This document shows positions 123-8,507 of a stretch of DNA of 29,647 nucleotides, one piece after another. The stretch is taken from the NCBI GenBank assembly GCA_002763225.1, contig PFAI01000022.1:1-29647 (forward strand), in the 5' to 3' direction. Source of the stretch: Candidatus Diapherotrites archaeon CG10_big_fil_rev_8_21_14_0_10_31_34. GTDB lineage: Archaea > Iainarchaeota > Iainarchaeia > Iainarchaeales > 1-14-0-10-31-34. Positions within the stretch are counted from its first letter, which is position 1, and every line of letters starts with the position of its first letter. The position numbers were made by a program, and so were the translations under genes. The notes beneath the pieces are model-generated. The model was not told where the DNA came from. It did no database searches and saw only the letters and a list, made by a program, of their open reading frames with translations.

Positions 123-995
123 TTAGGGCACAACCCTATTTAACTGGAATTCCAAAACATCTGTTGCTCCTGCTTTAATTATTTTTGGAAGAATTTTTGG
201 AACTTCATCTTTGTTTACTGCGACTTTTACTGCATAACCTTGTTCCCCAAAAAGCTCGCTTACAGTAGGGCTTTTCATACAAGGAAGAATTTTTATTAAT
301 CCATCTAATTTTTCTTTTGAAACATTCATTTCAAGCATTACTTTTTGCATTCCAAGCAATGCAGCTTCCAATAACATTTTTATTTCATTTATTTTGTTTT
401 TTTTCCATTTATCTTTCAAAGCTTTTTTGTTTGAAATCATTGTTGTGGTTGATTCAAAAACAATGTCAATTACTCTCAAGTTGTTTGCTTTAAGTGTTGC
501 TCCTGTTTCAGTCAAATCAATTATTGCATCAGCAAAAACAGGGCATTTGACTTCTGTTGCACCCCAGGAAAATTCTGCTTTGGCTTTAACATTGTTTTTT
601 TTGAAATATTTTTTTGTTAAATTCATTAATTCAGTTGAAACAGTTTTTCCCTCTAAATCTTTAACAGTTCTAATTTTGGATTTTTCTGGAACGGCTAAAA
701 CCCATTTAACTTTATTAAAACCTCTTTTTGCATATTCAAATTCTTTTATTTTTTCAACTTTTGCATCAGTTTCTTTGATCCAGTCCAATCCGGTTATTCC
801 TAAATCAATTACTTCATCTTCAACAAACATTGGAATCTCTTGTGGTTTAATTAAAATTACTTCTACTTCTTTATCGCTTGTTATCGGATAATAAGAACGA
901 GAATTAACTGTTATTTCAATTCCTGCTTTCCTGAATAAGTCAACTGTTGTTTTCTGTAAACTGCCTGTAGGCAATCCAATTTTTAGTTTGTTCAT
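123..995 (-). CDS. hisG: ATP phosphoribosyltransferase, long form with C-terminal regulatory domain
   Basis: Motifs IGLPTGSL, DLGITGLDW, SWGATEVK, DAIIDLTETGATLKAN, plus C-terminal SPTVSEL domain. Confidence 0.95.
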   Translation of the reverse strand: MNKLKIGLPTGSLQKTTVDLFRKAGIEITVNSRSYYPITSDKEVEVILIKPQEIPMFVEDEVIDLGITGLDWIKETDAKVEKIKEFEYAKRGFNKVKWVLAVPEKSKIRTVKDLEGKTVSTELMNLTKKYFKKNNVKAKAEFSWGATEVKCPVFADAIIDLTETGATLKANNLRVIDIVFESTTTMISNKKALKDKWKKNKINEIKMLLEAALLGMQKVMLEMNVSKEKLDGLIKILPCMKSPTVSELFGEQGYAVKVAVNKDEVPKILPKIIKAGATDVLEFQLNRVVP

Positions 996-1660
996 TTAAT
1001 TTCCTCCCATGAAATTTTTCCTGAATACAACGCCATTCCTATGATAGGTTTAACCCCAATTCTTTCCAGTTTTCTTGCTTCCTGAATTGAAGTAATTCCG
1101 CCTGCGGCACTTAATTCATTTTTTGTACATTCTTTTAATTTTTTTATTAAATCAAAGTCTGTTCCATTCATTAATCCTTCTTTTTCAACGCAAGTAAAAA
1201 GAAATTCCCCGCAATAAGGTTCTAATTCTTTAATCAATTCAAAAGGAGTTTTGCTTGTTTTTTTCTTCCATCCTTCAACAACCACTTTTCCTTTAAAAGA
1301 ATCAACTGCGACAATAATTTTTTTTCTTGGAACTCTTTCAGTTAATTTTTCAAGAAACTTTTTGTTTGCTTGAGTTCCAATAATGATTTTTTTTGCTCCA
1401 TCATCAATTAATTCAACTGCTTTTTCAATGCTTCTGATTCCTCCGCCAACTCTTGCGTTTACTATTTCAGTTATTTCTTTTACAATTAATTTGTTTTCCC
1501 CTTTATTCATTGCTGCATCCAAATCAATCAACTGCACTTCTTTAAATCCTTTAAATCTTCCGGCGAAATAAAACGGATTATCTATTTCAAAAACTTTATT
1601 TTTTCCTTGTTCTAACTGAACTACTTTTCCTTGAATTAAATCAATGCTTGGAATAATCAT
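992..1660 (-). CDS. hisA: ProFAR isomerase
   Basis: IIPSIDL..GKVVQL, IDLDAA, VGGGIRS, AAGGI; ATGA overlap with hisG. Confidence 0.92.
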   Translation of the reverse strand: MIIPSIDLIQGKVVQLEQGKNKVFEIDNPFYFAGRFKGFKEVQLIDLDAAMNKGENKLIVKEITEIVNARVGGGIRSIEKAVELIDDGAKKIIIGTQANKKFLEKLTERVPRKKIIVAVDSFKGKVVVEGWKKKTSKTPFELIKELEPYCGEFLFTCVEKEGLMNGTDFDLIKKLKECTKNELSAAGGITSIQEARKLERIGVKPIIGMALYSGKISWEEIK

Positions 1661-2436
1661 ATTCTCACCATTATATTTTGTTTTTTCAGATAATCTTTTA
1701 CTTCTTTAACTGAATACTTTCCAAAATGAAAAACGCTTGCACCTAATACTGCGTCAGCTTTTCCTTTTTTTATTGCTTCAGAAAAACTTTCAAGTGTTCC
1801 TGCTCCTCCTGAAGCAATAACAGGAATATTCACTGAATCTGAAATCAATGAAGTTAATTCTAAATCAAATCCTTTTTGTGTGCCGTCTGCATCAATTGAA
1901 GTAAGCAGAATTTCTCCTGCCCCAAGTTTTTCTGCTTGTTTTGCCCAATATAATGCATTTAATCTCTTGTTTTTTCTTCCTCCAAAAACAAAGCATTCAA
2001 ATCTTGTTCTTCCTTTAAATGAATTTTTTTTTGCATCAATTGCAACAACACAAGCCTGTGAACCAAACTCTTTGCTTATTTTTGTTATTAATTCAGGTGA
2101 ATTAATTGCAGCAGAATTAATTGAAACTTTGTCTGCGCCAGCCTTAAACAGTTTTTCTGCATCTTTAATTGTTTTAATTCCTCCCCCAACAGTTAATGGA
2201 ACAAAAACCTGTTCACTTGTTTTTTTGACTACTTCAATCATTGTTTCTCTTTTTTCTGCTGAAGCAGTTATGTCCAAAAAAACTATTTCATCTGCTCCTT
2301 GTTCATAGTATTGTTTAGCCATTTCCCAGGGAACTCCTGCATATTTTGTTTGCCTGAATTTTATTCCTTTAACTACTCTTCCTCCTTTTACTGCTAAATC
2401 GCAGTCCAAACAAACAATAATTCTTTTTGACAGCAT
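1657..2436 (-). CDS. hisF: Imidazole glycerol phosphate synthase cyclase subunit
   Basis: MLSKRIIVCLD, GRVVKG, GADEIVFLDI, VPLTVGGGI, GEILLTSIDADGT; start moved to ATG 2436, matching the family N-terminus. Confidence 0.96.
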   Translation of the reverse strand: MLSKRIIVCLDCDLAVKGGRVVKGIKFRQTKYAGVPWEMAKQYYEQGADEIVFLDITASAEKRETMIEVVKKTSEQVFVPLTVGGGIKTIKDAEKLFKAGADKVSINSAAINSPELITKISKEFGSQACVVAIDAKKNSFKGRTRFECFVFGGRKNKRLNALYWAKQAEKLGAGEILLTSIDADGTQKGFDLELTSLISDSVNIPVIASGGAGTLESFSEAIKKGKADAVLGASVFHFGKYSVKEVKDYLKKQNIMVRI

Positions 2437-2440
2437 TTTT

Positions 2441-3034
2441 TTACAACTCACTAAACCTTTTTAGTATTTTTAGTCCGTTTTCTCCTGATTTTTCCGGGTG
2501 AAATTGAAAAGCAAAAACATTTTCTTTTTCTATTCCTGAAACAAATTCTTCTCCGTTATAACTGCTTGTGCAGGAAATAATTTCTTTTTCTTCTGGAACA
2601 GCATAATAGCTGTTAACAAAATAAAAAAATTCTCCATTTAATCTTTTAAGCAACCTGCTTTTTTTTACTTGAATTTTGTTCCACCCTATTTGTGGGATTT
2701 TTTTTGGTTTTGAAAATCTTTTGTTTTTTCCTTTAAAAACTCCTAAGCCTTTTCCTTTGCTTTCCTCGCTTTCTTCAAATAATGTTTGTAAGCCTAAACA
2801 GATTCCAAGAAAAGGGGTGCCTTGTTTTATTGCCTGAATTAATGCTTTATCCAGTTTTTTTTTCTGAAGCAGTTTTATTGAGGTTCCAAATTCTCCTACT
2901 CCTGGAAAAACTATTTTTTCTGCTTTAAGTATTTCTTTTGGATTATTTGTTACACTAACTTTTTCTCCAAGAAACTGGAGAGAATTTTTCAGGCTTTGGA
3001 TATTTCCTTTTCCATAGTCAACTATTGAAATCAT
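2441..3034 (-). CDS. hisH: Imidazole glycerol phosphate synthase glutaminase subunit
   Basis: MISIVDYGKGN, FPGVG, LGICLG (nucleophile Cys), QFHPEKS; start moved to ATG 3034, 4 nt after the hisB stop. Confidence 0.95.
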   Translation of the reverse strand: MISIVDYGKGNIQSLKNSLQFLGEKVSVTNNPKEILKAEKIVFPGVGEFGTSIKLLQKKKLDKALIQAIKQGTPFLGICLGLQTLFEESEESKGKGLGVFKGKNKRFSKPKKIPQIGWNKIQVKKSRLLKRLNGEFFYFVNSYYAVPEEKEIISCTSSYNGEEFVSGIEKENVFAFQFHPEKSGENGLKILKRFSEL

Positions 3035-3038
3035 TTTT

Positions 3039-3623
3039 TTACAATACTCCTTTTGTTGAAGGCACTCCTTTAACTCTTTCATCTGTTTCTAACGCCATTC
3101 TTACAGCCCTCCCAAAAGCTTTAAACATGGCTTCAATTTTGTGGTGTGTATTTCTGCCTTCTAAAACTTTTATGTAGAGGTTTATTCCTGCATTAAATGC
3201 AACTGCTTCAAAGAAATCCTGAACTAATTCTGTTGGCAAATCCCCAACTATTTCTCTTTCAAATTCTGCTTTAATTACCGGATAACCTCTTCCACTGAAA
3301 TCAACTGCACACAACACCAGACTTTCATCCATTGGAATTAATGCATTGCCATATCTATTGATTCCTTTTTTTTCTTCTAAAGCTTTTTTTAAGGCTTGGC
3401 CTAAACAAATTCCAATGTCTTCAACTGTGTGGTGTTCATCCACTTCAAGATCTCCTTTTGCTTTTAAATTCAAGTCAATTAATGATTGTTTTGAAAACAA
3501 TTCAAGCATGTGGTTTAAGAAACCAATTTTTGAGTCAATTTCATATTGCCCTGTTCCATCAAGATTTATTTCCAGTTCAATTTCTGTTTCATTTGTTTTT
3601 CTTTCAATTCTGGCTTTTCTCAT
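3039..3623 (-). CDS. hisB: Imidazoleglycerol-phosphate dehydratase, monofunctional
   Basis: RKTNET, DEHHTVED, PMDES, NTHHKIEA, PSTKGVL. Confidence 0.97.
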   Translation of the reverse strand: MRKARIERKTNETEIELEINLDGTGQYEIDSKIGFLNHMLELFSKQSLIDLNLKAKGDLEVDEHHTVEDIGICLGQALKKALEEKKGINRYGNALIPMDESLVLCAVDFSGRGYPVIKAEFEREIVGDLPTELVQDFFEAVAFNAGINLYIKVLEGRNTHHKIEAMFKAFGRAVRMALETDERVKGVPSTKGVL

Positions 3624-4686
3624 ATTCGACTTCCTCCAAGATTTTTTTTAATTCTGCAAGAAATAATTTCATTTGATTTTGTGTTCCCACTCCAATTCTG
3701 ATGCATCCTTCAAGCAAAGAGTATCTGCTTCTGTCTCTAACTAAAATGTTTTTTTCTTTTAGTTTTTTTGCAATAATTGAAGCGTTTTCTCCAAACCTTG
3801 CAATAAAAAAGTTTGCTGAAGTAGGAAAAGTCTTTATTTGAATTTTATTGAATTCTTTTAAAGTGAATTCCCTTGCTTTCAGCACTTCTTCAATGTATTT
3901 TTCAGTGTATTCTTTGTCTTTTAATGCAGCTAACACTGCAATTACGCTTAAAGAACTCACGCTATAAGGAGAACTTGATTTCAGCAAAACAGAAATTATT
4001 TCTTTGCAACTTGTCAGAAAAGCAATTCTTAATCCAGCTAATCCTGCTCCTTTACTAAAACTTCTTAAAACAACTAAATTGCTGTATTTGTTGACTAAAT
4101 CAATTACTGTTTCTTTGCAGACATCATAATATGCTTCATCCACCAAAACCAAACAATTGTTTTCTTCTGCTTTTTCGATTATTTTAATTATTGTTTTTCT
4201 TTCAATTTTTGTTCCTGTTGGATTGTTTGGATTGCATAAAATAATCATATTTGTTTCTGGTTTGATTGCATTGAGAATTTCTTTTTCCGGAAAACTCAAA
4301 TCTTTATTGAAAAGAATTTTAGTTATTTTTGCTCCGCGCAATTCTGCATAAAACCTGAACATTGCAAAAGTTGGAACTGCAAGAATAACTTCTTTTCCTT
4401 CTTCTACAAAGCAGTCCATTAAATTTCTTATTCCTTCGTCTCCTGCATTGGTTACAATAATATTTTCTTTTTTTAATCCAACAGATTCAGCAATTTTTTC
4501 TCTTGCTTTATTGTATTCAGGGTAAATACTGAAATCTTCTGCTGTTGCATTTCTTATTGCTTTAATTACTTTTGGTGAAGGTCCTAAAGTATTTTCATTG
4601 AAATCCAGTCTTAATTTTCCTTTCCTGTTTTCTGTCGGCGGATCATATGGCTTTATTTCTTTTACTGCTTTTCTGATTTTAACCAT
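3604..4686 (-). CDS. hisC: Histidinol-phosphate aminotransferase
   Basis: RLDFNEN, CNPNNPTG, VDEAY, RSFSK (PLP lysine), GLAGLR; operon context. Confidence 0.93.
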   Translation of the reverse strand: MVKIRKAVKEIKPYDPPTENRKGKLRLDFNENTLGPSPKVIKAIRNATAEDFSIYPEYNKAREKIAESVGLKKENIIVTNAGDEGIRNLMDCFVEEGKEVILAVPTFAMFRFYAELRGAKITKILFNKDLSFPEKEILNAIKPETNMIILCNPNNPTGTKIERKTIIKIIEKAEENNCLVLVDEAYYDVCKETVIDLVNKYSNLVVLRSFSKGAGLAGLRIAFLTSCKEIISVLLKSSSPYSVSSLSVIAVLAALKDKEYTEKYIEEVLKAREFTLKEFNKIQIKTFPTSANFFIARFGENASIIAKKLKEKNILVRDRSRYSLLEGCIRIGVGTQNQMKLFLAELKKILEEVEYEKSQN

Positions 4687-5420
4687 TTAATTCCCTCCAT
4701 TAAATCTTCAATTTTTTTTATTGAATAATCTCCTAAATTTTCTTTTCCTAAATAAATTGATTTCATTTTTGCTTTTTCTGCTGCTAAAACATCATTAATA
4801 CTGTCTCCGACATAAACTGCTTTTTTTGAGCCAATATTTTTTGCAGCCAAAAACAAGGGTTTTGCATCTGGTTTGCTTTTTTTTGTGTCTTCCCTGCAAA
4901 CTATTTTCTTAAAATCAAAAAAGGCATCTAGTCCATTTAGTTTCAAAGAGTATTCTGCTTCTTTTCTTGGCCTTCCAGTAACAATTCCCAGCTTAAACTC
5001 TTTTTTTAATTCCATAAAAACTTTTTTTGGAATCATTAATTTTTCATTGTTAATCAAACCTTTTTCTTTTGAAACTGGTTTTTTTCCATAAATTGTTTTG
5101 TATAATTTTTCCCCCAGATATTTTGCCTGAAAAACTTTAAACAATTCAATATATTTTTTTCTTTTCCTGTCTTTTTCTGTTACTTTGCAGACTTTTTTCC
5201 TGAATTCTCCTGTTGAAACATTTTTTTCAAGCAGGCATACTAATTCAAAAGTTGCATCCCAGTCATTGTTGAATTCAGGGATTTTTTTTATTGCAGAAAC
5301 TTCTTCTTGTGAAACAGTTTTTCCTAAAAACTCTTTTGATGTCTGTCTTATTGCTTCTCTATAGGATTTTGATACATCGATTATTATTCCATCAATGTCA
5401 AATATTATTGAGTCAATCAT
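4662..5420 (-). CDS. HAD-superfamily hydrolase, probable histidinol-phosphate phosphatase
   Basis: FDIDG motif I, FNNDWD, VTGRP, SKP, YVGDSINDV; lies between hisD and hisC and supplies the only otherwise missing pathway step. Confidence 0.8.
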   Translation of the reverse strand: MIDSIIFDIDGIIIDVSKSYREAIRQTSKEFLGKTVSQEEVSAIKKIPEFNNDWDATFELVCLLEKNVSTGEFRKKVCKVTEKDRKRKKYIELFKVFQAKYLGEKLYKTIYGKKPVSKEKGLINNEKLMIPKKVFMELKKEFKLGIVTGRPRKEAEYSLKLNGLDAFFDFKKIVCREDTKKSKPDAKPLFLAAKNIGSKKAVYVGDSINDVLAAEKAKMKSIYLGKENLGDYSIKKIEDLMEGIKWLKSEKQ

Positions 5421-5441
5421 TTTTTTTCCTCCAAATTTTTT

Positions 5442-6713
5442 TCACTTAAATCTTATTTTAGCTGAGTTTTTGTGTGCAGGCAAACCTTCAATGTCTGCAA
5501 AAACTTCAATTGTTTTTAAAAGATTTTTTAGTCCTTTTTTTGAAATTTTCTGAATGTATTGGGTAACCAAAAAATCTCTTACATTTAATCCAGAAGAAAA
5601 CCTTGCAGTCCTTCCTGTAGGCAATATGTGATTTGTTCCAGAACAATAATCTCCTGCTGCAACAGGGCTGAATTCTCCGACAAAAATTGAGCCAGCACAC
5701 TTTATTTTTTCCAGAGTTTTTTTGTTGTCTTCAAATACAATCAAGTGCTCTGATGCAAGCTCATTTACCACTTCAATTGCCTGATTCCGTGTTTTAGTTA
5801 AAACTATTACTCCGTTTTCTTGCAATGATTTTTTGATTACTTCTTGTGTTTCAAGTTCTTGCATTTGCTTTAATACCTCTTTTTTTGTCTGTAATGCAAG
5901 ATTTTTGTTTGTTGTAACCAAAACTGTTTTAGCTAATTCATCGTGTTCTGCTTGAGCCAAAATCTCTGAAGCAATAAATTTTGAATTACCTTTTCTTGCC
6001 AGAATACAGCATTCGCTTGGCCCTGCAATTGAGTCAATCCCGACTCTTCCAAAAACCATTTTTTTTGCTGTTGCAACAAAAATATTTCCCGGTCCCATAA
6101 TTTTATCTACTTTAGGAATTTTTTTTGTTCCAAAAGCCATTGCTGCAATTGCCTGTGCTCCTCCTATTTTTGCTATTTTGTTCACTTTGCACAAGTCAGC
6201 TGCAACTAAAATAAACGGATTAATGCTTCCATCTTTTCTTGGAGGAGTGCATAAAACTATTTCCTTGCATCCTGCTGTTCTTGCCGGAACTAAATTCATT
6301 AAAACACTTGAAGGATAAGGATATTTCCCTCCCGGAACATAAACCCCTATGTTTTCTATTGGTCTAATAATTTCTCCTATTTTAACCCCTTTTCTTGTTT
6401 CAACAAACCATTTTTTTGGTAATTGTTTTTTACAGCTTTTTTCAAGATTTTTTTTAGCAAACTTTAATGCATTAAGTTCTTTTTTTGAAATTTTTTTGTA
6501 TGCCTCTCTTATTTCTTTTTTTGAAACAAGGATTTCTTTTAGCTTTACTTTATCAAATTTTTCAGTTAATTCTATTATTGCTTTATCTCTTTTTTTTTGA
6601 ACTTCTTTAATAATCTCTTTAACGGTATCTTCAATTCTTTCTGTTTCTTCTTCTTTGTCTTTCATTAAATCTTTTATTTGTTTTATTTCTTTGAATTCAA
6701 TTATTTCCATCAT
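5442..6713 (-). CDS. hisD: Histidinol dehydrogenase
   Basis: GVYVPGG, GGAQAIAAMAFGT, GPGNIFV, AGPSE, QAEHD, EHL, GDYCSGTNHILPT. Confidence 0.97.
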   Translation of the reverse strand: MMEIIEFKEIKQIKDLMKDKEEETERIEDTVKEIIKEVQKKRDKAIIELTEKFDKVKLKEILVSKKEIREAYKKISKKELNALKFAKKNLEKSCKKQLPKKWFVETRKGVKIGEIIRPIENIGVYVPGGKYPYPSSVLMNLVPARTAGCKEIVLCTPPRKDGSINPFILVAADLCKVNKIAKIGGAQAIAAMAFGTKKIPKVDKIMGPGNIFVATAKKMVFGRVGIDSIAGPSECCILARKGNSKFIASEILAQAEHDELAKTVLVTTNKNLALQTKKEVLKQMQELETQEVIKKSLQENGVIVLTKTRNQAIEVVNELASEHLIVFEDNKKTLEKIKCAGSIFVGEFSPVAAGDYCSGTNHILPTGRTARFSSGLNVRDFLVTQYIQKISKKGLKNLLKTIEVFADIEGLPAHKNSAKIRFK

Positions 6714-7021
6714 TTTAACACCTTAAAACAGTTTTTTTTGTTTAAATGACAAGCATTTCCTGTTTGTTCAACTTTAAACAACAAAGTGTCTTTGTCGCAG
6801 TCAACAAAAACTTTCTTTAATTTTTGAGTATTGCCAGAGGTTTCTCCTTTTCTCCAAAGTTTTTTCCTGCTTCTACTGTAATACCATCCTTGACTGGTTT
6901 TCATTGCTTTTTCTAATGATTCTTTAGTTGAATAAGCAAGCATTAACACTTCAGAATTTGTTTCTTCTTGAACAATTGTTGGAATCAATCCATTTCCTTT
7001 GTTCCAATCAATTTTTTTCAT
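6710..7021 (-). CDS. hisI: Phosphoribosyl-AMP cyclohydrolase
   Basis: VLMLAY, YSRSR, LWRKGETSGN, DCDKD, ACH..CF. Confidence 0.95.
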   Translation of the reverse strand: MKKIDWNKGNGLIPTIVQEETNSEVLMLAYSTKESLEKAMKTSQGWYYSRSRKKLWRKGETSGNTQKLKKVFVDCDKDTLLFKVEQTGNACHLNKKNCFKVLK

Positions 7022-7320
7022 TATTTCTCCTCTCCAGTTCCATAAAAACTTCTTTTAGTTTTACTTCTCGTTTTGCAAGCAAAACCATCAAAAAATAGAG
7101 TAAATCAGCTGCTTCCCAGATAACTTCTTTTTTTTCTTTTATTTCTGCTGCTTCAATTAGTTCTTCGCTTTCTTCACTAACTTTTTCTATAAGAAGCAAG
7201 GGATCTTTAAGTAATTTGCATGTAAAAGATTTTTCAGAAAAAGATTGTTTTCTTTTTTCAATGATTTTTTCAAGGGAAAATAAATCAAATTCGTTTTTTG
7301 TGAACTAAATCCCTTCTCAT
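7008..7320 (-). CDS. hisE: Phosphoribosyl-ATP pyrophosphatase; full length (~103 aa) needs a +1 frameshift between 7305 and 7285
   Basis: Open frame 7304-7008 reads FTKNEFDLFSLEKIIEKRKQSFSEKSFTCKLLKDPLLLIEKVSEESEELIEAA…WEAADLLYF…ELERR; an in-frame TAG at 7307-7305 bounds it and no ATG/GTG/TTG precedes the conserved N-terminal helix; ATG 7320 with a GGTG RBS is in another frame. Confidence 0.85.
7285..7320 (-). CDS. 11-aa leader ORF MRRDLVHKKRI overlapping the start of the hisE frame
   Basis: ATG AGA AGG GAT TTA GTT CAC AAA AAA CGA ATT TGA, preceded by TGGTG-TTTTT; GGTG RBS is also seen before rpl35ae and iscU. Confidence 0.6.
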   Translation of the reverse strand: MRRDLVHKKRI

Positions 7321-7376
7321 AAAAACACCAGAAACTATTCTTTCCTCTGAATAAATAAAATCAGCGATGAACTAAA

Positions 7377-7427
7377 CCACTTAGTGGGAATAATGTGGGA
7401 ATCATATACTGATAGAGTTGGGTAATC
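7377..7427. promoter_or_regulatory. Candidate operator upstream of the his operon
   Basis: GTGGGAAT at 7384-7391 and 7395-7402 (11-bp period), variant GTTGGGTAAT at 7417-7426, palindrome CCACT-T-AGTGG at 7377-7387. Confidence 0.5.
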
Positions 7428-7430
7428 TTT

Positions 7431-7817
7431 TTAAACCTTTGCAAATGTTGCTTTCAAAATCAGTTTTTCTTTTTCTAAATCTTTTTTCACTTTCGCTAAG
7501 TTTACTTTACTAAAATCTGCTACTACACTCCATAAAGCTTCTTTCCCTCTTTTTGTGCTTCTTGATTCAGTAAAAACCAAATCTACTTTGTTTTTCCTTA
7601 AAACTTCTGCTGCTTTTGCTAATGAACCAGGGTTGTCACTCAAAAAAATATGCATTTTTTTTACTTTTCTTTCCAGTGGGAACAATATTATTCTTTCGTT
7701 TTCTTTGTCTAATTCTGCAATGATTTTTTCTCCTTTTTTTATTCCTAATGATTCTCTGAATGAGTTTGGAATGACTATTCTCCCTTTTGAATCAATTTTT
7801 GAGTTTTGTGTATTCAT
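7431..7817 (-). CDS. AbrB/MazE/MraZ-type DNA-binding domain fused to an ACT domain
   Basis: N-terminal KIDSKGRIVIP..FRESLGI..GE; C-terminal LSDNPGSLAKAAEVLRKNKVDL (ACT signature DxPGxLA..NI-like). Confidence 0.85.
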   Translation of the reverse strand: MNTQNSKIDSKGRIVIPNSFRESLGIKKGEKIIAELDKENERIILFPLERKVKKMHIFLSDNPGSLAKAAEVLRKNKVDLVFTESRSTKRGKEALWSVVADFSKVNLAKVKKDLEKEKLILKATFAKV

Positions 7818-7883
7818 GCATTAATTACTGCTTTTCACTTATTTAATGTTAGTGTTAAATACTTGTCTGGTTTTATTTAATTC

Positions 7884-8507
7884 ATGAAAAACTGGGTTTG
7901 TTTTATTTTGTTATTACTGTTTGTTTTTTCTTTTGGTTGTCCTGAAGAAAAAAAAGAAACAAATAATAATTTAGTTGATTTGAATTCAGCTTCTGTTCAG
8001 CATGGTCCTCCAGAAGAATTTGAGTATTTGGATTACACTAATTATAATGTTTTTGAAATGGAAAAAAATATTCATTCTTTAATTAATGATGAAAGAACCA
8101 AATTAGGTTTAAACACACTTGAATTTGACGAGCATTTGGCTTTGATTGCAAGAAAGCACTCTAAAGACATGGCAGACAAAAATTATTTTTCTCATTTTGA
8201 TTTACCGGGAAATGATTTTAGTTATCGTTATGAACAATCAAATTATGATTGTAAAATTGTGGTTGGAAATCTAATTCATTTGGGTGCAGAAAATTTATTT
8301 AAATACAATATAGCTAAACTGGTGTATACTTCCGGCGGGGTAGCTGAATATAATTCTCAGGCAGAATTAGAAGTAGCGGCAGTTGAAGGCTGGATGAATT
8401 CTCCTGGTCATAGAGAAAACATTGAAAAAGAATTCTGGCTAAAAGAAGGAATCGGAGTCTATATTGACGAAGAAGGAGATGTTTTGGTTACTGAAAACTT
8501 TTGCTGA
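7884..8507 (+). CDS. CAP/SCP-domain secreted protein, probable lipoprotein
   Basis: Signal peptide ending FSFGC; INDER..GL, ARKHSKDM..YFSH, GAENL, WMNSPGHRENI. Confidence 0.9.
   Translation: MKNWVCFILLLLFVFSFGCPEEKKETNNNLVDLNSASVQHGPPEEFEYLDYTNYNVFEMEKNIHSLINDERTKLGLNTLEFDEHLALIARKHSKDMADKNYFSHFDLPGNDFSYRYEQSNYDCKIVVGNLIHLGAENLFKYNIAKLVYTSGGVAEYNSQAELEVAAVEGWMNSPGHRENIEKEFWLKEGIGVYIDEEGDVLVTENFC

Follow-up and report, generated by a model that had tools for sequence, protein, structure and literature searches.

We examined a 29,647-nucleotide stretch of the genome of Candidatus Diapherotrites archaeon CG10_big_fil_rev_8_21_14_0_10_31_34 (contig PFAI01000022.1; hereafter the window), in which a gene for a 128-amino-acid (aa) protein combining an AbrB-type head with an ACT-fold tail (AbrB-ACT) precedes a histidine biosynthesis (his) operon. 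The operon is complete and follows on the same strand, its remaining genes after hisE occupying 123 to 7021, so that the gene stands directly upstream of the operon, as an earlier note on this DNA had stated. Lying between them are a TATA-like box, two phased CCCAC repeats (GTGGG on the opposite strand) and a small open reading frame (sORF) that shares its bases with the repeats and carries an invariant His codon (Table 1). The comparative evidence described here supports the interpretation of AbrB-ACT as a putative regulator of the his genes.

The head of the protein, residues ~1 to 48, was matched by PF04014 (MazE_antitoxin/AbrB; 8.2e-10, 38.9 bits against a cut-off of 24.7) and by the NCBIfam AbrB model TIGR01439 (2.6e-10, 39.9 bits against 28.3). 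Its sequence matches in the PDB were the N-terminal domains of AbrB, Abh and SpoVT, together with a 92-aa Pyrococcus protein, and five of its residues (D9, G12, R13, P17 and R21) are kept in alignments of the wide family. The tail was matched by PF01842 (ACT) over residues 58 to 102 (4.2e-4, 20.5 bits), a family that precomputed Pfam assignments give to 17 of 30 close homologues (101 to 145 aa). An AlphaFold2 model built on 23 homologues (mean predicted local distance difference test score [pLDDT] of 83.2) places a beta-alpha-beta-beta-alpha-beta unit at residues 52 to 126, with a pLDDT of 85 to 94 over this block; the elements are strand 52-60, helix 65-75, strands 79-89 and 93-101, helix 107-116 and strand 120-126. 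In Foldseek this half resembled the ACT domains of AF1403, PGDH, IlvN and PAH (probability 1.00, E values from 3.9e-4), and the ACT-like domain of NikR (Helicobacter pylori chains) was also among the matches. Conserved residues in the alignments of the tail include D61-x-P63-G64-x-L66, D79-L80, S85, R90, A94 and W96; the first of these motifs is invariant and supplies the Gly-containing beta1-alpha1 loop of the ACT fold. Taken together, the Pfam, AlphaFold2, Foldseek and PDB results indicate that the reading of this protein as an AbrB domain joined to an ACT domain, which the earlier note had also reached, is right. The MraZ half of that note's AbrB/MraZ label fared less well. PF02381 (MraZ) matched residues 1 to 29 only (3.9e-6; profile positions 3 to 31 of 72), and the NCBIfam MraZ models scored 16 to 21 bits against cut-offs of 98 to 239, with no full-length match to a tandem-domain protein. 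By these profile matches, the protein is AbrB-like rather than a member of the MraZ family. When four copies were modeled together, the interface score ipSAE was 0.48, versus 0.01 for the best control, with the interface formed by residues 1 to 48, a result that may reflect likeness to solved AbrB dimers; three runs had at least 73% of contacts in common, with a partner pLDDT of at least 75. Of 30 solved homo-pairs, 20 reached the ipSAE mark that we applied, as did 1 of 23 single chains.

AbrB-ACT belongs to a sizeable archaeal family. A profile search returned 326 clusters at an E value of 0.001 or less and 76 at 1e-10 or less, many of them full-length two-domain proteins of 125 to 140 aa. 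Named members come from Iainarchaeota/Diapherotrites, Micrarchaeota and Methanobacteriota, and unnamed Atlas clusters carrying both PF04014 and PF01842 come from Thermoproteota, Bathyarchaeota, Microcaldota, Aenigmatarchaeota and Methanobacteriota. The architecture is already represented in databases, only as "hypothetical" or without a functional name: NF006352 (PRK08577, "hypothetical protein") matches AbrB-ACT over its full length with 90.6 bits, below its equivalog cut-off of 140, and a distant homologue discussed below (genome G214) with 85.9 bits. Full-length relatives accounted for 10 of 13 loci in a genome collection, the other three being bacterial matches to the head only. In a metagenome collection, relatives matched over at least 70 residues made up 14 of 78 loci (the match exceeding 100 residues in 13), and the remainder again matched the head only. 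A survey of 215 genomes of the phylum found a full-length homologue in 15 and head-only matches in 2 more. In the literature that was covered, no publication was found to contain both "AbrB" and "ACT domain."

Wherever its neighborhood can be read, AbrB-ACT lies at a histidine locus. This holds for all 15 carrier genomes of the phylum, for all 10 full-length relatives in the genome collection and for every relative with flanking DNA, so the survey of homologue neighborhoods that the earlier note had suggested turned up no member away from his genes. The gene that usually follows in relatives is a short-form hisG or a hisG-hisC-HAD fusion of 758 to 778 aa; in the clade of the window, hisE, hisI and hisD come next. 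Within the phylum, hisD is present in 42 of the 215 genomes, namely, 14 of the 15 AbrB-ACT carriers versus 28 of the 200 noncarriers. In the fifteenth carrier (G087, 73% complete), hisD was not detected, and a hisG-hisC fusion directly follows the AbrB-ACT gene. Within the genus, the genome of the window (G000) and one other (G015) are the sole genomes with either AbrB-ACT or hisD. Given that the carrier genomes are mutually related, the association with hisD is to be read as a pattern and not as a formal statistical test. The hosts are DPANN-type archaea with small genomes, which are unusual for their group in making their own histidine.

The second component of the locus is the repeat pair. 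On the plus strand, the window contains two exact copies of GTGGGAAT and no more (7384-7391 and 7395-7402); the 11 bp from start to start confirm the spacing given in the earlier note. The chance expectation for exact copies is 0.52, and two or more were seen in 8 of 100 shuffles; the 19-nt tandem form appeared in none of 100, even when two mismatches were allowed. Copies with one mismatch were not enriched in the window (16 versus 15.3 expected). In the genome (1.04 Mb), this locus and a paralogous one on another contig (C16) are the only sites of CCCAC-N6-CCCAC, and even of the looser pattern CCAC-N7-CCAC. The same note had described a third variant of the repeat. The sequence in question, GTTGGGTAAT at 7417-7426, is indeed present but differs from the repeat by more than one mismatch, is altered in the closest relative (L004) and is absent from all other genome and metagenome loci; since it is not conserved, it is probably a chance occurrence, and we discarded it.

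Nine of 10 genome loci and all 13 readable metagenome loci have the pair immediately past the regulator gene, and they share a layout consisting of a TATA-like box, 22 to 24 unconserved bases and ATGA(A/T)TCCCAC-N6-CCCAC. Across the phylum, TCCCAC-N6-CCCAC matched in 44 of the 215 genomes, mostly as scattered sites with G/C-rich spacers, and a backwards-pattern control also gave sporadic matches. The form with an A/T-rich spacer was found in all 15 carriers and in four other genomes: G096, with the end of the contig immediately upstream of the element; G105, to which we return below; and G019 and G200, whose matches we set aside as unrelated and probably part of coding sequence. The repeat pair has been kept in different families of the phylum and is a deep phylogenetic footprint. 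They are also conserved where a coding role would leave them free to vary. Between loci, the third positions of sORF codons P3, T4 and P7, which lie inside the repeats, show an identity of 0.90, versus 0.315 over 2,720 comparisons at the four-fold third positions of the adjacent regulator gene (which are saturated), and the spellings CCC and CCA are each kept by all 18 loci and ACT by 15 of them. We conclude that the repeats are constrained as nucleotides, on top of any constraint from coding. In one family of the phylum, the interval between sORF and hisG holds an additional conserved stretch, CTGATTYTGRTA...(A/C)(G/C)TGGG(C/A)A (alignment columns 73 to 100; L095, L097, L021, L022 and L131), which contains an inverted CCCAC core ~55 to 60 nt past the direct repeats.

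The geometry of the promoter is equally regular. In 20 of 22 distinct loci, the motif TTTAWAD begins at -30 to -32 from the ATG of the sORF. Genome-wide in G000, the position of TATA-like octamers relative to the first ATG in long open reading frames (ORFs) peaks at -30, with 20 occurrences versus 0 to 14 elsewhere, and leaderless mRNAs thus appear to be common in this organism. Taking the -30 peak as a signature of leaderless mRNA, we predict that the his transcript starts at or next to 7405 and that the repeats occupy about +4 to +22. The repeats are thus found 22 nt past the TATA box of the operon, at the predicted start itself, the CCCAC cores beginning 5 nt beyond it. The AbrB-ACT gene has a probable promoter of its own, the distance from TTAAATAA to its ATG (21 nt) agreeing with the genome-wide peak.

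Two genomes separate the components of the locus. In G152, AbrB-ACT is convergent with the his operon, and the only repeat match in the genome lies 5 kb from the regulator gene, at the 5' end of the operon, after the TATA box and before hisG. Here the repeats have been kept, although the ATG of the sORF has become CTT and the His codon has been lost. In G214, AbrB-ACT is a distant homologue (E value of 6.7e-24, 37% identity), and the only two repeat matches in the genome flank the AbrB-ACT region, each abutting a TATA-like sequence and neither with an ATG. The first lies between tRNA-His(GTG) and hisS-AbrB-ACT; the second lies between hisD and a CYTH gene and has a third phased CCCAC just upstream, for three to four phased copies in all. 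Even leaving the sORF aside, these two genomes link the repeats both with the protein family and with histidine genes. The G214 locus is itself a histidine supercluster in which tRNA-His(GTG) is followed by the CCCAC pair with its TATA box, hisS and AbrB-ACT, and the N terminus of its HisRS bears five copies of a seven-residue repeat (MSLGEKK-like).

On this comparative evidence, we consider it probable that AbrB-ACT is a single-target repressor of the histidine locus with an operator overlapping a leader ORF. The AbrB-type head would dimerize, and the ACT-fold tail would act as the sensor. The predicted operator is the ~22-bp element made up of the two CCCAC (GTGGG) repeats phased at 11 bp; two heads, or one head and its neighbor in a higher oligomer held together by ACT domains, could read GTGGG cores one helical turn apart, and inverted GTGR cores in two further conserved boxes (B1 and B2; see below) may contribute to binding. 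Protein bound at +4 to +22 would hinder either the recruitment of RNA polymerase or promoter clearance, and the position of the repeats on the predicted start makes a repressor the most likely type of regulator. The most likely corepressor would be L-histidine bound to the ACT domain. Control at a second level, that of translation, may come from the sORF and its invariant His codon.

Several observations weigh against this interpretation. The ACT match of 20.5 bits falls below the Pfam cut-off of 27, and in the four-copy model confident contacts are confined to the AbrB head, with none between ACT domains. Histidine is suggested as the ligand by genomic context alone. Of the 42 hisD-positive genomes, 28 are without AbrB-ACT, and their his loci are without CCCAC repeats. 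Regulator, repeats and sORF mostly form one contiguous module of 0.5 kb, separated only in G152 and G214, and their co-occurrence is to that extent trivial. In G214, moreover, the geometry differs from that of the window, with the repeats placed upstream of the TATA box. G105 (89% complete) has the promoter, the repeats and the sORF in front of hisG and no detected AbrB-ACT, nothing resembling the protein being present in the 540 nt upstream. Finally, the conserved bases belong to an ORF kept intact by all 22 loci, and part of their conservation may therefore stem from coding or from constraints on a leaderless 5' end.

This last point concerns the sORF, whose features deserve separate consideration. 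An open frame of 14 to 28 codons with a His codon is present in all 22 distinct ATG-bearing loci, with the consensus M-N/I-P-T-F/L-F-P-(L/Q/P)...(S/G)-(D/E/G)-x-(L/I/V)-H and a stop codon 1 to 7 codons past the conserved His. The ATG sits at the exact leaderless position relative to the TATA box. The spacer from the second repeat to the His codon falls into length classes of 11, 14, 17 and 41 nt, all of them in frame; the sORF frame has no stop in any of 17 distinct spans, versus stops in 9 and 14 of the 17 in the other two frames, one of these counts being inflated by a conserved GTGA. The His codon varies only synonymously (CAT or CAC), and the codon preceding it varies conservatively (L, I or V). 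On these grounds, we consider translation of the sORF likely.

A further, rather improbable, extension is that two sensors are packed into the same 45 bases, with the operator of the repressor in codons 2 to 8 and the sORF as a whole acting as a ribosome-dependent sensor of histidine or of His-tRNA. A ribosome at the 5'-terminal AUG (on RNA) would then compete with the repressor (on DNA) for one segment, and the fixed MNPTFFP N terminus and the invariant His two to eight codons before the stop would belong to this arrangement. If true, it would be the first amino acid leader-peptide control described in Archaea. The overlap of a candidate operator with a leaderless, His-codon-bearing sORF makes such control in archaea directly testable. 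In those parts of the literature on archaeal his regulation and leader peptides that were covered, only bacterial work was found (including PMC10138114).

An unlikely alternative is that the main role of the conserved element is to encode a leader peptide, translated as MNPTFFPL...S-D/E-x-L-H, and that CCCAC is not an operator of AbrB-ACT, which would act elsewhere or in another way; the His codon or the nascent chain would sense the histidine supply, and the his genes downstream would be controlled through ribosome-dependent attenuation or coupling. The retention of the ATG at the genome's leaderless start position, the open frame in every spacer class, the purely synonymous variation of the His codon, with only L, I or V before it, and the persistence of the sORF in G105 all favor this possibility. 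A peptide, however, does not need the frozen synonymous sites at codons 3, 4 and 7. Nor did a degenerate, peptide-level search of the 215 genomes find any synonymous spelling of the sORF; the CCCAC spelling was found in 13 genomes (along with one unrelated match), and the peptide thus never occurs apart from the nucleotide motif. Conversely, G152 and both sites in G214 hold repeats without the ATG or His. Each of the 22 sORFs has just one or two His codons, and no conserved terminator or antiterminator structure was found (see below). A run of at least four T's within ~12 nt after the sORF stop, counted by eye, is present in only 8 of 18 aligned loci, and we dropped a T-tract terminator as a weak candidate.

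A very unlikely alternative is suggested by the genes that follow AbrB-ACT. Short-form HisG in bacteria is usually partnered by HisZ, and AbrB-ACT could in principle be a trans-acting subunit conferring histidine feedback on short-form HisG, in the role played by HisZ or by the C-terminal domain of HisG. The next gene in most relatives is indeed a short-form hisG (~195 aa) or its fusion, with PF01634 only. All five genomes tested (G000, G095, G104, G010 and G009) have a single HisRS-like gene each and so no HisZ, although short-form HisG is found in four of them. In contrast, the window and its clade have a long-form HisG with HisG_C and yet keep both the protein and the repeats. The AbrB DNA-contact motif is retained family-wide, and we abandoned the idea that the ACT tail is kin to HisG_C, as no sequence alignment between the two was found. 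This alternative also leaves the conserved repeats unexplained. Single ORFs of 758 to 778 aa encode HisG-HisC-HAD in L006 (4512-6806), L009 (3057-5366), L010 (3453-5786), L023 (2961-5234), L025 (708-2993) and L027 (3003-5300), the HisG part being short-form, the HisC part an aminotransferase and the HAD part a phosphatase. Other relatives have HisC-HAD fusions of 552 to 610 aa.

It is highly improbable that the leader is a structured RNA, such as a riboswitch, a T-box-like element or a C/D-box small RNA. An alignment of 18 loci contains three deeply conserved blocks, namely, the repeat block, B1 (AAGTGAnTTACTTCAT) at the end of the sORF and B2. In favor of an RNA-level role, CAC is a His codon and is complementary to the GUG anticodon of tRNA-His, and the AUGAA at the 5' end is complementary to the UUCAU of B1 and B2. 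Against it, RNAalifold found only 4 pairs in the 18 loci (-1.9 kcal/mol, no covarying or compensatory changes), the window leader folded as a single sequence no better than shuffles (z-score of 0.28), and a search of Rfam at E values up to 10 gave a best E value of 3.1, with all matches far under their gathering scores and no His_leader match. We therefore rejected a structured leader. B1 and B2 agree at 12.8 of 18 positions within a locus and at 11.8 of 18 between loci, an excess too small for concerted evolution, which we likewise rejected; we regard them instead as a single conserved block present twice. That AbrB-ACT is a MazE/VapB-type antitoxin and the repeats a product of chance is almost certainly wrong, for although MazE_antitoxin is the top Pfam name, no toxin ORF adjoins the gene in relatives or in the window, where the neighbors are his genes and a CAP-domain gene, and conservation of the repeats extends over several families of the phylum.

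Table 1. Features of the AbrB-ACT/his locus (positions in the window, except for the last row)
Feature	Position	Strand	Basis and remarks
AbrB-ACT gene, 128 aa	7431..7817	-	ORF, Pfam, AlphaFold model; candidate histidine-locus regulator
N-terminal AbrB/SpoVT swapped-hairpin domain, residues 1-48	7674..7817	-	Pfam, alignments, PDB sequence matches
C-terminal ACT-fold domain, residues 52-126	7440..7664	-	Model secondary structure, Foldseek, alignments
TATA-like TTAAATAA, probable own promoter of AbrB-ACT gene	7839..7846	-	Sequence; without CCCAC repeat
TATA-like box TTTAAAAA of his operon	7428..7435	-	Overlaps AbrB-ACT stop codon; 22 nt before sORF ATG
Two phased repeats, ATTCCCAC-N3-ATTCCCAC	7384..7402	-	Candidate operator core; sORF codons 2-8
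sORF, 14 codons, MIPTLFPLSGLVHR then stop	7361..7405	-	Invariant His codon CAT at 7367-7369
Box B1, AAGTGGTTTAGTTCAT	7367..7382	-	Alignment; conserved block at sORF 3' end, inverted GTGR core
Box B2, AAGGGATTTAGTTCAC	7300..7315	-	Second B1-type block, at start of first his gene; in-frame TAG at 7305-7307
hisE (PRA-PH), first operon gene	7008..7304	-	PF01503, 7.2e-23; without canonical start codon
hisI	6710-7021	-	Pfam
hisD	5442-6713	-	Pfam
HAD phosphatase	4662-5420	-	Pfam
hisC	3604-4686	-	Pfam
hisB	3039-3623	-	Pfam
hisH	2441-3082	-	Pfam
Two PF00977 genes	1657-2451 and 992-1660	-	Pfam
Long-form hisG (with HisG_C)	123-995	-	Pfam
G214 histidine supercluster, L142 (C13 25500-32500)	4941-5033, 3377-4798, 2989-3414, 2351-2367		

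Curiously, the first gene of the operon has no obvious start. Read from 7304, hisE covers PF01503 profile positions 3 to 86 with its residues 10 to 94; an ORF starting at a TTG at 7199 reaches only positions 31 to 86. No ATG, GTG or TTG precedes the region required by Pfam, from ~7277 onward, and the frame is closed by an in-frame TAG (7307-7305), immediately after an ATT. This TAG is common to three of five clade members (the window, the C16 copy [L003 5520-5600] and L019); L004 has CAG and L018 has AAG in its place. An ORF overlapping hisE, which starts at an ATG at 7320 (in others, at the GTG of box B1), ends after a run of A6 or A7, and hisE is in the +1 frame relative to it. Several hisG-first relatives have GGG where the GTG start of hisG is expected. 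A noncanonical start, stop read-through and frameshifting or slippage are all possible modes of hisE initiation.

The paralogous locus on C16 (L003 4407-6068, minus strand) carries a second AbrB-ACT gene, whose product shows 80% aa identity, and has the repeats, the sORF, hisE and hisI as well. The next ORF there, of 191 aa, has a HisD-like N terminus joined to the C-terminal half of HisG, and a run of N's lies ~200 bp upstream of the AbrB-ACT gene. The locus looks like a his operon from which the interior has been deleted or, alternatively, like a second strain binned in with the first. Divergent from AbrB-ACT in the window is a gene (7884-8507, plus strand) for a 207-aa protein with a hydrophobic N terminus and a CAP/SCP domain (PF00188, 6.3e-14), which is probably secreted.

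In those parts of the literature on archaeal control of histidine biosynthesis that were covered, we found no dedicated regulator. The present locus offers a concrete, testable trio, namely, a 128-aa regulator, a candidate operator of ~22 bp with two CCCAC cores and a likely ligand. As the combination of AbrB (MazE) and ACT domains is widespread and unnamed across archaeal phyla, a function established here would seed the annotation of the family.

How does this putative regulator compare with known systems? With MraZ it shares an AbrB-like fold with a D-x-K-G-R loop, and, like MraZ, it would have a single target at the head of an operon next to its own gene. MraZ binds a series of phased direct repeats with a GTG core. 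In Escherichia coli, these are TGGGN repeats. The Mollicutes repeat is given as AAAGTG[T/G] (PMC8475190). MraZ, however, has two tandem domains in ~150 aa and no sensor domain, and it resides at mraZ-mraW in the dcw cluster, whereas AbrB-ACT has one such domain plus ACT and is flanked by his genes and the CAP-domain gene. By sequence, the head matches the swapped-hairpin DNA-binding domain of SpoVT, AbrB and Abh of Bacillus, and in SpoVT, too, a domain of the sensor type follows at the C terminus. That domain, however, is GAF and not ACT. These proteins are bacterial sporulation or transition-state regulators, and TIGR02851 scored 17 bits on AbrB-ACT against a cut-off of 236. NikR follows the same logic of design: a small beta-ribbon DNA-binding head is joined to an ACT-like C-terminal domain, through which the effector is bound and the oligomer kept together, yielding a ligand-dependent repressor of one operon. 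Its head is nevertheless of the ribbon-helix-helix type, its effector is nickel and its operator is an inverted repeat, whereas here the head is AbrB and the repeats are direct.

Among amino acid control systems, hisL likewise places a short ORF with His codons ahead of the his operon. It relies on a run of His codons and on alternative hairpins, in contrast to the one or two His codons, the lack of a run or of conserved structure, the leaderless mRNA and the archaeal promoter found here. Archaeal Lrp/FFRP regulators (LysM and others) and TrpY respond to amino acids, control biosynthetic operons and have ACT-like (RAM) sensor domains; their head is a helix-turn-helix, unlike the AbrB head of the present protein, and no regulator of the Lrp/FFRP or TrpY type for histidine was found in the covered parts of the literature on archaeal his control. 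A dedicated DNA-binding factor for his genes does exist in Gram-positive bacteria, namely, HisR (PMC9413887), and the Pfam scan of the window proteins gave no HisR-type domain. Set beside these systems, what appears to be new here is a putative ligand-sensing regulator of the AbrB type, whose predicted operator is well defined and, unusually, overlaps a leader ORF.

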